DNA of 64,000 nt, taken from the NCBI RefSeq assembly GCF_041248615.1, contig NZ_CP158425.1; one strand, given 5' to 3'. Positions 21,001 to 27,000 of this stretch are shown here, one piece after another. Position 1 is the stretch's first letter, and the number at the start of each line of letters is the position of its first letter. The DNA is from Escherichia coli (GTDB lineage Bacteria; Pseudomonadota; Gammaproteobacteria; Enterobacterales; Enterobacteriaceae). A program made the position numbers.

Positions 21001-24000
21001 ATGGTTAAAGGAGCTCTACAGCAGCTTAATACTGTAGAGCCTTTGTTCACTGGAAATCGTACAGGGAGGAGCATATGGACCGCATCAAGTACCTGAAATG
21101 GATAGCTGAAGAATCACCAACTGATGATGAAATCGACAACTACGATAGTATCATTAGTCGGGGCGCAGAAAGGGCCGAGAAGGTTCAGTTGTCTTTAAGA
21201 CGTTAATATACGGGAGTTTAAATGTTCGCAGAAATCAAAGATAATTATTCGTTAGGTGGATAAAGAAAGGTTGCCATTACCAGCTTTCGACGAGTCGAAA
21301 ATAAAAACCTTATTTATAGTGACAGGGAGTATGAGCTGACGCTTGCCAATGGAACAATAATTAAAAATGTACTTAGAAAAGAAGAGTGGGAACTGTTAGA
21401 AAGCAATTCAATTAAGGTTATATTATAACGAAAATATATTTACAGTTTTGGATAGGTTTCAAACGAGTCCGGACATTTGTACCTGAAGTATCTGACATTA
21501 CAGTTAAGTGACGATTATGTCAGCACGTCTGTTGCTGGCAGCTTAGCTATCGGTCTAAAAGCTGATCCATTAATAATTCTTCGTAAAGCCCAGAGGTATC
21601 GGGCTTTATTACAATATCCGTTATTTCGAAGCGTTCAAGTACAAATTGCAGATATTCCGGAGTAACGTAGTAGGGATCAGGTTCAGCCAGATTAGTATAG
21701 AGTGGGTCTTCTGCTGCATTAATGTCATAATCAATGCACATATGAAACCACTGCAAAGGTGGATCCCAGCCTAACATCACCTGAACAATTCCCTGATTGC
21801 TTTTCACCTCATACCAGTGCTGGCTCATACTTAGTCCTTAAGAAAATTTGTCATCGGAAAATAACACGAAGCCTGCATCATCGAGGCGCATAACCTTCTT
21901 CCCTTAACGCCTGTTGTAATTTATCAACTGCGCTTTTCATTACCCAGGCTTCTTCGTCACTCACAGCACAACCACGTAGATCGCTCCAGCTCAGACGTTT
22001 AACAAATTGAGCAAGGGCCATAGTTTCGTTCTCATCAAGCCGCAAACTCAGTGTCTCAATACCTTCCACTATCTAACCTCCCTTATAATGAAAAATGGCG
22101 CTTTACTTCTGACCAGATGCCGAAGCCTTGAATGCAGCCGGAACTGTCGTTGTTTCTACTTTACAGAAATGGAATTAAAAAGTGGTGATGCTGGGCACGT
22201 TTCTTTTCCAGCCGGGGTTTAAGCCAGAGCTGAAACTCATTCAACTTCTCAGCAGCCAAAACCGCTTCAACGGGGAAAACTTTATATTTACCCTGTTGCT
22301 GAGGTTCACCCAGCCATCGCCTGATGGCTCCGTCAGTCCATAAACGAGTCTCTTTTAGCCTAGTTACAGTGACCCATTTTCTGGACCATTCATCAAATTG
22401 TCGCTGGCGATCCCGATAACGTTGTTCTTCCTGCTGCCGAAGCCACTCGCGATCAACAGCAAATTTTCGGTATCCAACAAAGAGCCCTTGTACTTTGGCC
22501 ATGTCATATTCCGGTTGCTTAGAGTTACTCATTCAACCAAAACCTAAACGTCGATACAAACTCTGTTTCATAACCAGGGTTTTATCCTTACCGCGACAGT
22601 AAGTAACAGGGGCTGCATAAACCGGTCATTTAGTCCGTTATGCAAAAATTATTGAGGATCCGGGCTGTTAAACTGTTCTTCCTCTTTCGCTTCCGGTGAA
22701 AAGGGGAGGTGTCACCCTGCGAGCCCGTGTAGTGAAAGGGATTCGTCGTAATACAGGCCAAAGGCTAACATGACCGCAAAGGACGCCCGGGCGACCGGAT
22801 ACCTGCCGGGTTGTGCGATGTAAAATCCGGAAGCAGTGATAACACAAACAGGCCCCTACAGCGTAAGGATTGTGATGGACGATAAAGAGCAGTTTACGAA
22901 TCTTGTGGCAAAGCATGCCTCCGGACTCACCGAAGAGCAGCTGGCCGGGTACGATGCCTGTTCCCTGGATGGTGAATGCGTCACGCCTTCATACGAGGTT
23001 TTCCGGGGGTATCGTACCCGCCACACACTGGATGAATTTCTGGAGATGGCCATATCGCTGAATGCCATCCACCCGGATGAATATTTAACGGATATGCTGC
23101 TGAAGCCTCATGAGGTGATCGGCGCTCTGGCCGATGAAGGCGACCAGCTGAACAACGCCACCCCGGTTTATTTCTTTCCGGATACCGGCGTCTATGCAGC
23201 GGCCGTTAGTGAAACCCGGGTGCTCGATGCCTGGCTTTGCTGGCCATGCTACCCGGCGAACTGGTAACGCGGCCGTTGGAATTGCACCGGCCGGATACGA
23301 ATTTAACCGACCCCGTGGCGGGAAGGCTATCAGAGTTGCATGTCCTCATCCCTCAAGCCCCCTGCCAGGCCCCAACGTGCTGTCAGGCTTCGCCTGATTC
23401 CCGATCTGCGCCGATACTTCAGCCGATAACTTTTTGTTTTCTTTTTATTTTCTTCCCATTTCCTCAAAAATCGCGGGCGGCGTGGACAGGGCACCATTGC
23501 CGCATGTGGGGTCTTAATAAGGGCAGGGTGGTCAGTTTTGCTCGATGCCAGGGGTAGGCCCTCCCCTTCATGGGATGAGGACATGCAAGTAAGCTAACTA
23601 TCTGAAATGACGAAGGTTAATTTGGTGAATGTCGCTTCATATTAATGTTGTGTCACTTATGATCGTATGTAGCTGGTTGCAAAGAGGAGCGATGAGACAA
23701 TAAAGTTGTATCGCTAACAAGATTTATGCTGCCACATAGTAACAGCCTAAAAGTTGTACGCCCTATTTAACAGCTTTTAGGCTGTTAATTTGATATTACA
23801 GCTTTTAGGGTGTATGTTTAGGAAACAGCCTGCAAGGTGTATCAGAGGAAACTACTGAGGCCAGCTTATGATCAATAATGATTACCCGTTAAACACGCTC
23901 AACCAGCTGCGTCCCTTGCTCATTGGTTTTCGCAAGGCGAATGGCCTGACGCAAAAAGACCTGTCCGAAAGGTTAGGCGTCACTCAACAGACATACTCAC

Positions 24001-27000
24001 GTCTGGAAGCCAACCCTGCCAGTGCGAGCATTGAACGGCTATTCAAGGTGTTTTCCATCCTGGGCGTAAAAATCAGCTTCTCCTCGGCAACCACCTCTTC
24101 AGAGAGGAAGCAGACGGAAGAAATGCTTAAATCAAACTCACCTGCACGACAGGAGGATTGGTAACGATATGAGCCGGAAACAGCAACGTCTGGTAATTTG
24201 GATGAACGGCATCAAAGTCGGGTACTGGGAAAAAAGCAAAGGGGTAGACAGCTTAGAATACCTTCCTGAATGGGTTGCTGACGAACAGGGAAGGCCGCTG
24301 TCATTGTCCCTTCCTTTTACTCCCGGGAACCAGGTCTGGCGTGGAAATGTGGTACGTGACTATTTTGATAATTTACTGCCGGACAGCGAAGGCATACGCA
24401 GACGTCTGGCAATGCGTTACAAGGCCGATAGCCTGGAGCCTTTTGATCTGCTGACGGAGCTGGGAAAAGACTGCGTGGGCGCGATACAGCTGCTTCATGA
24501 CGGAGATGAACCCACTGATTTATATTCCGTGAAGTATCACCCGCTTACTGAATCAGAAATTGCGGCAACTTTGCGTAATACCACGGAGACATTGCTACCG
24601 GGCAGGCCAGAAGATAACGACGACTTACGTTTATCTATTGCCGGTGCTCAGGAGAAAACAGCCCTACTGTGGCATGAAGATCGGTGGTGTATGCCGGAGG
24701 GTAATACACCAACGACGCATATATTCAAGCTACCGCTCGGACTTGTGGGGAACATGAAAGCCGACATGAGCTCGTCGGTTGAAAATGAATGGCTCTGCTC
24801 GGTACTTCTCGGCCAGTACGGGCTCCCCGTGGCAAGAACGCAGATTGCTCACTTTGAAGATCAGAAAGCGCTGGTGGTAGAACGTTTTGACCGAAAATGG
24901 TCAGGAGACGGACAATGGATCATTCGTTTACCCCAGGAGGATATGTGTCAGGCCCTGGGCGTTTCGCCATTACGAAAATATCAGGCGGACGGCGGGCCAG
25001 GTATATCGGAAATTATGGAGGTTCTGAGTAATTCAGACCGTGCTGAGCGTGACAAAGCGCAGTTTTTTATGACGCAGATAATTTTCTGGATGATGGCCGC
25101 AACAGATGGCCACGCTAAAAATTTCAGTATTTCTATTGGGCCACAGGGACGTTATCACCTTACACCAAACTATGATGTGTTGTCGGCATGGCCGGTGATC
25201 GGTCATGGGAACAATCAGATATCCTGGCAGAAGTGCAAACTGGCGATGGCCGTACGTGGCAGTAGCAACTATTACCAGATATATCGAATACAACGACGCC
25301 ACTGGATCAGGCATGGTGAGATAACCGGCCTGAGTAAACAGCAGACAGAGGCGATGATAGAGGAAATCATCGCCAGAACCCCGGGTGTCATTGAACGTGT
25401 TAGCGGGCTTCTTCCGGACCAGTTCCCCCAGCAGCTTGCGGAAAGTATTTTTGATGGAATGAGGCAGCAATGCAGGCGCCTGGCTGAGAAATGACAGCCG
25501 CAATTTATAGTGTGCATGTTTTCAGAATAGCTGATGTAAGCGTGAGGATTCAGTATGACTGAAGAACAAAAAAGAATAGAGCGGGCTATTGAGTTGGCTT
25601 GTCGTTACGGCGGAACCGATGAAATGCATCATCTGCAATGGGTCGTGGATCAGATGGTAAGAGAACTTGCTGGAGAACGTTATGCACAGATTGTAGCTGA
25701 TGCCACCAGCGGAGAAGATGGGCCTGATACTTACAAATGGAGTGTTGGGATCGCGCCTTAACAGCTGTCGGTCTGGGGGTGAAAACGTATTCTTCATTCA
25801 GCGAATTCCCAGGCTTCACATTAAGACTAAAGCGGCGGCCGCAGTAACGTAAGAGAAAATAAATGGCTATTTTAGCAATCATTGCAGTTATCGCCCTGGG
25901 TGGGTACGCCTACGGATTTATTAAAACCCGTGAGCTGAGCGCTTTGCGTAAAGAAATGAAACTATACGTGGATCGCATGGAAGCGGCGGAGCTGGACTTA
26001 CACGCAATCAGAAGTGTAGCGGAGCACCGGTTGCACGGTGCAGGTAAACAGTTTGCCGACCTTTACAGCCGTATCGACGGTGCAACTGTGACGCTGACAC
26101 CCGAAGATCAGCTGTTACTGGCAACGATGCCATTTAATATTCAGGATGTAGAAGACATCGTAAACGAGCGCGGTCCAAAGACAATTAGCGGCCGTCCATT
26201 CTGGGAAGTTGAGCCAGGCCCGCATGATTATGAATATGGCCCGCAATATCCGTATTTCCCAGACCAGCGCTAGGAAGAGATCAAGATGAGAGAGCCAAGA
26301 CCACGCCATACCTTGCAGGTCATTCGTGTACCTTCTCTGGAGGTTCAGGACCTGGGGCTGACCAGCTTTGATAGCTGGCTTGACGAGCACGGGTATGACA
26401 AAACGAATGCCAGAAATAACCGTACCATCTGGGCGAGAGAAGGCGGATGGCATCTGAAACGTTGCAGAAATCTTGAAACTGGCACGGACGATTTCTGGTT
26501 TATCGCTTTCGATGGTAAAGGCGGGAAGATTTACCCGCTGAAAACCCAAAGAGACTACCGGGCTGCATATCGTAAGCTGGAAGCAGAAGGTTATGCGCCT
26601 GCGGTCATCGAGCAAATGACCACAGGCGCAGCATATAACCTGGCCTATCCACGTTCCACCCTAAAACAAGCTGAGACGGCCACCAGCGAGCCAATTCGGA
26701 AACCTGACGTAGATATCCAGGGTGAGCACTGCGAGCGCGTAGTGACGCAACGTAGTGGCGTGGCACAGGGTAAATTCAAAGCTCTGCTCATCGAGAATTT
26801 CGCAGGCCGTTGTGCGGTAACCGGTTGGGTTAATGGAGGTGTCCTGGATGCGGCACACATTGAACATGGAACCCGGTACAATCCGTCTAATGGCATCCTG
26901 ATGACTCCAACAATGCATGCGCTGTTTGATGCCGATCTTATGGGCATAGATCCGGCCACCCTGACCGTTCATTTTAAGCCAGGCATTGAGGTGGGCGAGC

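Follow-up and report, generated by a model that had tools for sequence, protein, structure and literature searches.

Is the hipB-hipA gene pair of this Escherichia coli plasmid a working toxin-antitoxin module and, if it is, does it serve plasmid maintenance, phage defence or antibiotic tolerance? We analysed a window of 64,000 nucleotides of contig NZ_CP158425.1, to which all positions refer. The first-pass annotation had described a complete pair of HipB (HTH) and HipA (kinase) genes at 23868-25494 with a 4-nt gap, and this was borne out to the base by the ORF listing, Pfam and PDB, with matches far stronger than chance would give: the TAA of hipB ends at 24164 and the ATG of hipA begins at 24169, both on the + strand (Table 1). 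The pair is an intact, already known and annotated standard feature of the IncHI2 backbone, real but ordinary. Very probably it works as an autoregulated HipBA-family type II toxin-antitoxin cassette that belongs to the backbone of IncHI2 conjugative plasmids.

Table 1. Features of the hipBA cassette, with positions in the 64,000-nt window.
Feature	Position	Strand	Basis and remarks
hipBA cassette, self-contained (operators, promoter, hipB, hipA)	23740..25494	+	homology limits
Operator-like palindrome O1, ACAGCCTAAAAGTTGT	23742..23757	+	ACAGC-N6-GNTGT pattern; conserved in homologues L005 and L004
Operator-like palindrome O2, ACAGCTTTTAGGCTGT	23770..23785	+	half-sites perfect, matches both strands
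Predicted -35 hexamer TTGATA	23790..23795	+	consensus scan, 9/12 match, 17-nt spacer
Operator-like palindrome O3, ACAGCTTTTAGGGTGT	23798..23813	+	occupies -35/-10 spacer
Predicted -10 hexamer TATGTT	23813..23818	+	consensus scan
Operator-like palindrome O4, ACAGCCTGCAAGGTGT	23825..23840	+	immediately 3' of -10
Shine-Dalgarno-like GAGG	23857..23860	+	7 nt 5' of hipB ATG; direct sequence reading
hipB, Cro/C1-type HTH antitoxin/repressor, 98 aa, ATG start, ends in Trp98	23868..24164	+	ORF listing, HTH_3, PDB
Shine-Dalgarno-like AGGAGG for hipA	24151..24156	+	within hipB 3' end, 12 nt 5' of ATG; direct reading
hipA, Ser/Thr kinase toxin, 441 aa, ATG start, N-terminal Couple_hipA and HipA_C kinase core	24169..25494	+	ORF listing, Pfam, NCBIfam, PDB

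HipA matched Couple_hipA (PF13657; E = 3.7e-21, 75.9 bits against a cutoff of 22.5) and HipA_C (PF07804; E = 3.6e-51, 174.3 bits against 30.5) in Pfam and TIGR03071 in NCBIfam (93.5 bits against 27.8), and its residues 7-431 aligned to the structures of E. coli K-12 HipA in the PDB with E = 1.4e-100 and 41% identity. K-12 HipBA (b1508/b1507; PDB 3DNV, 2WIU, 3HZI, 4YG7) has the same hipB-then-hipA order, and the two HipA proteins, each of two domains (440 aa in K-12), align end to end with identical catalytic and Mg-binding residues. K-12 S150, K181, D309, N314 and D332 correspond to S156, K187, D313, N318 and D336 of plasmid HipA, all unchanged; H315 likewise aligns to its K-12 residue, and the P-loop reads IAGAQEK at 157-163, in which AGAQEK is identical to K-12. 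In K-12, K181 serves ATP binding, D309 is the catalytic aspartate and D332 binds Mg. S156, beside the P-loop, aligns to the autophosphorylation serine S150 and is a putative phosphosite. The first-pass reading depended on the kinase catalytic residues, and with all of them present it stands; a degenerate kinase is ruled out. The positions of K-12 high-persistence mutations, G22, P86 and D291, are also wild-type in plasmid HipA (G22 and D291 being G25 and D295). HipA is under purifying selection, with a hipA dN/dS of 0.06 against an 83%-identical homologue, a value that is only approximate because dS, at ~1.6, is near saturation. For hipB, comparison with the copy on the IncFIB plasmid pA708-2 met an indel that shifts the alignment and saturated synonymous sites.

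HipB gave an HTH_3 match above the Pfam gathering cutoff (E = 4.5e-15), and its closest solved relative is K-12 HipB (PDB; E = 1.4e-06), with which it shares a Cro-type HTH but only 26% identity overall and 32% across the HTH core, plasmid HipB being 10 aa longer. It scored 41.5 bits with the NCBIfam HipB equivalog, under the cutoff of 79, and is therefore a divergent HipB. Both proteins carry a C-terminal tryptophan: plasmid HipB ends in RQEDW, and W98, also kept in homologues L005 and L004, aligns to K-12 W88 as a putative HipA-docking residue.

Upstream of hipB, four palindromes straddle the predicted promoter at a spacing of 28/28/27 bp. The pattern ACAGC-N6-GNTGT occurs at four sites in the window, none beyond the hipBA upstream region, against 0.48 expected, and five matches to it were reached in 0 of 100 shuffles; the promoter hexamers, for their part, are weak consensus matches whose frequency is not above shuffles. 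The centres of O1-O4 lie at -118.5, -90.5, -62.5 and -35.5 from the hipB ATG, those of the K-12 operators at -125.5, -97.5, -58.5 and -30.5, and the two sets share their number, an 8-bp centre, 4-bp core half-sites and the position of O3 inside the promoter spacer. They differ in half-sites (ACAG/CTGT here, ATCC/GGAT in K-12) and in spacing (28/39/28 in K-12). Operator-like sites are kept in pA708-2 amid diverged adjoining DNA, and a 59%-identical Paraburkholderia hipBA is preceded by three sites of related sequence. We regard the four palindromes, with their K-12-like layout, as putative autoregulatory operators. Further differences from K-12 are the gene junction, where K-12 has a 1-nt overlap in place of the 4-nt gap, and the chromosomal location of the K-12 genes.

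Among other members of the family, HipAB of Shewanella oneidensis MR-1 (PDB 4PU3-4PU5), for which a DNA-bound ternary complex is available, is far more distant, with a partial match over residues 28-340 (E = 2.8e-21). The HipBST systems (E. coli O127 HipT/HipS; Legionella HipBST) have the HipA-type kinase core in common with the plasmid pair, whose HipA N-terminal domain is similar to HipS (HipS(Lp) in the PDB, E = 5.6e-07). HipBST, however, comprises three genes and the plasmid module two: as in canonical HipA, its kinase and N-terminal domain form one polypeptide, and the antitoxin role is expected to fall to HipB, not HipS.

The cassette is sharply bounded. Its limits, 23740-25494, are common to the unrelated plasmid pA708-2, whose diverged copy (76.8% nucleotide identity) is homologous over exactly 23740-25492 and has nickel-resistance genes on one side and the psiA/psiB/ssb leading region on the other; in a second IncHI2 lineage, homology begins at 23719. 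A transposable unit was considered and rejected, there being no flanking direct or inverted repeats around the cassette except the operators. Rfam returned no RNA element at E <= 0.1, either around the cassette or in the 600 bp of spacer upstream of it, and no intrinsic terminator was found 3' of hipA, the single + strand terminator-like match being O2 itself.

The plasmid location proposed at the outset also holds. Bases 1-53297 of the window are 99.97-100% identical to the IncHI2 plasmid pSA186_MCR1, and the 2-kb hipBA region is 100% identical to conjugative plasmids typed as IncHI2A, of which pSA186_MCR1 is an example. The region was found in 1,187 PLSDB plasmids, 986 of them conjugative, with at least 80% query coverage in 1,154 of the 1,187 matches; it occurs in 285 of 5,426 complete E. 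coli genomes, where 286 of its 290 places are on plasmids. The plasmid studied here is itself a large IncHI2 resistance plasmid with mcr-1.

In E. coli, Salmonella and Enterobacter, IncHI2 plasmids are major carriers of mcr-1, mcr-9, blaCTX-M and oqxAB, and the factors behind their stable inheritance are of practical interest. Published work classes hipA, present in 25 of 25 IncHI2 plasmids, as a stabilisation gene (PMC4855149), terms hipAB a backbone maintenance module (PMC6617520), uses it to account for stable IncHI2 maintenance (PMC6306219) and includes toxin/antitoxin genes in the 90% core of IncHI2 (PMC11058233). hipBA is among the few toxin-antitoxin modules of the conserved core, and its role in plasmid addiction is apparently assumed in these papers rather than demonstrated, core-backbone distribution being its support; in the searchable literature we found mentions at annotation level and no functional test of IncHI2 hipBA. 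The first-pass suggestions on function, which were put with caution, agree with what these papers assume. To this our analysis makes a modest addition, namely a kinase complete in its catalytic residues, sharp cassette limits and putative operators with half-sites other than those of K-12.

By analogy with K-12 HipBA, from which we infer toxicity, neutralisation, the target of the kinase, the lability of HipB and its binding to the operators, HipB dimers within a HipA2-HipB2 complex would occupy the four ACAG-N8-NTGT operators to repress the operon, and HipA would be kept inactive within the same complex. On plasmid loss or shut-off of expression, HipB would no longer be resupplied and would be degraded; K-12 HipB is degraded by Lon. 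Released HipA would then phosphorylate an aminoacyl-tRNA synthetase, most probably GltX, whose Ser239 is the target of K-12 HipA. Uncharged tRNA would build up, leading to the stringent response and a stop of growth. GltX as the substrate is a guess, because TrpS or LysS is the target of other HipA kinases that have been characterised (PMC8262856). For a large low-copy plasmid, the most likely net effect would be post-segregational growth arrest of plasmid-free cells, and hence stabilisation.

The surroundings raise the question of defence. The cassette had been placed at the margin of a putative island of defence genes, and part of this stands: it adjoins the ter cluster, and PMC11058233 cites Whelan et al. 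(1995) for phage inhibition by the ter cluster of the IncHI2 plasmid R478. Downstream lie genes for HNH nucleases, for a helicase of UvrD type and for an orphan methyltransferase. PADLOC, however, gave no complete known system among the scanned neighbours; its matches there were generic ones to a UvrD/GajB-like helicase, to HNH proteins and to the orphan methyltransferase. Abortive infection as the main selected role, with hipBA functionally grouped with the ter cluster, would have a phage shut off host expression, HipB become depleted and HipA halt translation before the phage cycle ends. Besides these neighbours, it can draw on HipAD (formerly DS-6), a HipA-family kinase effector validated in phage defence, where it needs the predicted kinase catalytic residue and possibly acts by abortive infection (PMC13092281). 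The HipAD partner (DUF3037/DUF1829), however, has no similarity to HipB (PMC13092281), whereas the plasmid module has a canonical HipB. Membership of hipBA in a catalogued defence system is likewise unsupported by PADLOC-DB v2, in which HipA matched only the candidate family PDC-M03A, weakly (E = 4e-5, 21 bits), and HipB gave generic HTH matches only. Moreover, the pA708-2 copy sits outside any defence context, the other IncHI2 lineage has a different left flank beside the cassette, the phage genome collection contains essentially no members of the clade (two matches, one of them a 501-kb Salmonella contig), and our literature search found no phage test of canonical hipBA. We therefore consider abortive infection improbable as the main selected role.

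Antibiotic tolerance as the main consequence, with stochastic HipA activation raising the persister fraction and helping hosts of multidrug-resistance plasmids survive treatment, appears a little less improbable, though still unlikely. Persistence has its classic kinase in K-12 HipA (PMC8262856, a review), S. Typhimurium became more tolerant to ciprofloxacin with an IncHI2 plasmid bearing hipAB, an effect not ascribed to hipBA (PMC6617520), and hipBA was noted as specific to one lineage of Salmonella that forms biofilms (PMC11271444). High persistence in K-12, however, requires gain-of-function alleles (hipA7: G22S, D291A), and neither of these substitutions is present here; no study separates the contribution of plasmid hipBA, and tolerance might be incidental and not the selected role. 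It seems very improbable indeed that the locus survives only as a remnant or selfish passenger, inert and with no working toxin-antitoxin system. At least one related IncHI2A plasmid, pNUH15_ECL011_1, was reported without HipBA (PMC6657070) and the module is therefore not indispensable, but two intact ORFs with complete catalytic residues, the low hipA dN/dS, operator-like sites conserved in diverged copies, the high coverage of most plasmid matches and the transcription of hipA/B, with differential expression (PMC13183382), all speak against decay.

The autoregulated maintenance cassette thus remains our preferred reading, and a bolder version of it is speculative and unlikely: an orthogonal HipBA variant with its own ACAG-N8-CTGT operator code, insulated from host hipBA, that moves between backbones as a 1.75-kb unit and has, in clinical mcr-1/MDR plasmids, a selected role beyond addiction in phage abortive infection, antibiotic tolerance of carriers or both. 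The unlike half-sites and the low HipB identity to K-12 do suggest that the plasmid module is insulated from host hipBA, and because its half-sites differ from those of chromosomal E. coli hipBA, cross-talk and orthogonality are directly testable.

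The window carries a complete pair of a Cro/C1 helix-turn-helix HipB and a kinase HipA, as the first-pass annotation had proposed from sequence, and both its ORF positions and its 4-nt spacing proved exact in the ORF listing and on direct reading (24164 is the last base of the hipB TAA, 24169 the first of the hipA ATG). GAGG lies 7 nt 5' of the hipB ATG and AGGAGG, within the end of hipB, 12 nt 5' of that of hipA. RefSeq IncHI2 plasmid records start hipB at 23871, an ATC codon, giving 97 aa, and the homologue on pA708-2, a K. quasipneumoniae IncFIB plasmid with a diverged (83%-identical) hipBA, is annotated from its own ATG; with GAGG preceding the 23868 ATG, this is probably an inconsistency in start-site annotation.

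Three Pfam domains clear their cutoffs: HTH_3 in HipB (E 4.5e-15) and, in HipA, Couple_hipA (E 3.7e-21) followed by HipA_C (E 3.6e-51). HipA residues 7-431 align with solved E. coli K-12 HipA (E 1.4e-100), and K-12 HipB is the closest solved structure to HipB (E 1.4e-06; HTH core 32% identical), with global identities to the MG1655 proteins of 41% for HipA and 26% for HipB. The annotation had held that a HipA lacking catalytic residues would speak against the module; in the alignment to K-12 these are all present, so that objection falls away. All key residues checked are unchanged: S156 (autophosphorylated S150 in K-12), the P-loop AGAQEK, K187 (K181), D313/H315/N318 (catalytic D309/H311/N314) and D336 (Mg-binding D332). 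HipB ends in Trp, as does K-12 HipB (W88), and scores 41.5 bits against the NCBIfam HipB equivalog, under the 79-bit cutoff; judged by sequence, it is a divergent HipB and no orthologue of the K-12 protein.

Upstream of hipB are four 16-bp palindromes, ACAGC-N6-GNTGT, at 23742, 23770, 23798 and 23825 (O1 to O4; spacing 28/28/27 bp). These are the only copies of the motif in the 64-kb window, where 0.48 occurrences are expected by chance, and none of 100 shuffles attained the observed count. O3 falls within the spacer of a predicted promoter, TTGATA-17-TATGTT at 23790-23818 (by itself a weak consensus match), with O4 directly 3' of the -10; O1 and O2 lie 5' of the promoter. K-12 hipBA has four ATCC-N8-GGAT operators centred at -125.5/-97.5/-58.5/-30.5 from the hipB ATG, compared with -118.5/-90.5/-62.5/-35.5 here, and O3 lies between -35 and -10 in both, whereas the half-sites differ (ACAG/CTGT here, ATCC/GGAT in K-12); operator architecture is thus common to the two systems and operator sequence is not. 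pA708-2 retains the four palindromes at unchanged spacing amid diverged surrounding DNA, and a 59%-identical Paraburkholderia hipBA has three ACAG-N8-CTGT-type sites upstream. By this sequence comparison the palindromes are phylogenetically footprinted, and we infer that HipB binds these putative operators.

Homology to pA708-2, where the cassette has nickel-resistance genes on one side and the psiA/psiB/ssb region on the other, spans exactly 23740-25492, and homology to a second IncHI2 lineage (pFJMB80011_1; 97.7% HipA) begins at 23719, with an unlike left flank. Given these sharp limits, operators, hipB and hipA behave as one 1.75-kb unit; a search for flanking repeats around it found none. 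The ~470 bp unannotated spacer 5' of the operators (about 23268-23740), with no Rfam match or convincing ORF, is not common to the second lineage, and the left flank is therefore a lineage-specific junction. From sequence divergence, hipA is clearly under purifying selection: dN/dS is ~0.06 against the 83% homologue (approximate, dS being near saturation) and, from no more than 23 differences, 0.33 when the two IncHI2 alleles are compared.

The plasmid location was borne out. Bases 1-53297 are 99.97-100% identical to the IncHI2 plasmid pSA186_MCR1, diverging thereafter in the resistance region, and the window comes from an IncHI2 plasmid that carries mcr-1. Many conjugative plasmids typed as IncHI2A share the 2-kb hipBA region at 100% identity. 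PLSDB has 1,187 matching plasmids (986 conjugative), chiefly from Escherichia, Salmonella and Enterobacter. Among 5,426 complete genomes of E. coli, 285 have the region, with 286 of its 290 places on plasmids.

Features of the window around hipBA
Feature	Position	Strand	Remarks
mcr-1.1	about 1-1622	-	truncated by window start
ISApl1	about 1891-2865		
pap2	about 2955-3473		PAP2 phosphatase gene
ter cluster	about 3600-21200		
hipB	23868-24164	+	98 aa, ATG start
hipA	24169-25494	+	441 aa, ATG start
UvrD-like helicase	29137-31176	-	679 aa; strong but generic PADLOC GajB/DRT-helicase matches
Overlapping ORF upstream of helicase	31173-32177	-	sub-threshold CoiA_N match only
DUF4942 protein	37164-37994		
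Coiled-coil protein	37991-39196		weak LmuB/JetC-like PADLOC matches
DUF1173 protein	39476-40795	-	
Orphan Dcm-type cytosine methyltransferase	41046-42473	-	PADLOC oMTase E 3e-206

The module is real and was read correctly; it is also known already, hipBA being annotated as a matter of routine in the IncHI2 backbone. One study found hipA in 25/25 IncHI2 plasmids and classed it as a stabilisation gene (PMC4855149), another names hipAB as a module for maintenance in pHXY0908, R478 and related plasmids (PMC6617520), and the stable inheritance of pMCR1_1943 was explained by reference to hipBA (PMC6306219). IncHI2A Enterobacter plasmids are tabulated with hipBA, one plasmid being without it (PMC6657070), the IncHI2 90% core includes toxin/antitoxin genes (PMC11058233), hipA/B is transcribed and differentially expressed (PMC13183382), and 'hipA-Xre like' comes first among type II TA types tabulated for 58 K. 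pneumoniae IncH plasmids (PMC7326226). These papers contain no test of the module, and the literature searched yielded no functional study of IncHI2 hipBA. Our additions are small: the operator motif with its K-12-like layout, precise cassette limits and an explicit residue check.

By analogy with K-12 HipBA (summarised in PMC8262856), HipA2-HipB2 complexes acting at the four operators would keep the operon repressed, and proteolytically labile HipB would be depleted once resupply ends; free HipA might then phosphorylate an aminoacyl-tRNA synthetase (GltX being the best guess), causing stringent-response growth arrest. For a large conjugative plasmid of low copy number, the expected effect of hipBA is post-segregational arrest. 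Addiction in E. coli hosts would need insulation from chromosomal hipBA, which the other operator code and low HipB identity suggest.

A role in phage defence or persistence is possible but unsupported. DS-6/HipAD, a HipA-family kinase with a non-HipB partner, is a validated phage defence (PMC13092281), but HipA here gave only a weak PADLOC match to a candidate family (E 4e-5), the cassette sits in a non-defence context in pA708-2, and phage genomes contain essentially no members of the hipBA clade. The proposed position at the edge of a defence island was supported only in part: the adjoining ter cluster has a phage-inhibition phenotype on IncHI2 R478, as credited to Whelan et al. 1995 (reference 8 of PMC11058233), but the neighbours scanned with PADLOC gave only generic helicase, HNH and methyltransferase matches and no complete system. 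As for persistence, the K-12 high-persistence allele positions (G22, P86, D291) are wild-type in HipA.

Small ORFs of no assigned function separate the ter cluster from hipBA, past which lie unassigned ORFs, HNH proteins, the UvrD-like helicase, H-NS, DUF4942 and DUF1173 proteins and the orphan methyltransferase. Directly 3' of hipA, with no terminator found in between, a 68-aa ORF, a 136-aa ORF and a 271-aa HNH_2 protein (25555-27101) accompany hipBA in both IncHI2 lineages, though not in pA708-2. A 4.4-kb segment (28101-32487) that includes the UvrD-like helicase and its overlapping ORF is missing from pFJMB80011_1; these two genes could form an accessory or defence pair in which the helicase acts with an uncharacterised protein.
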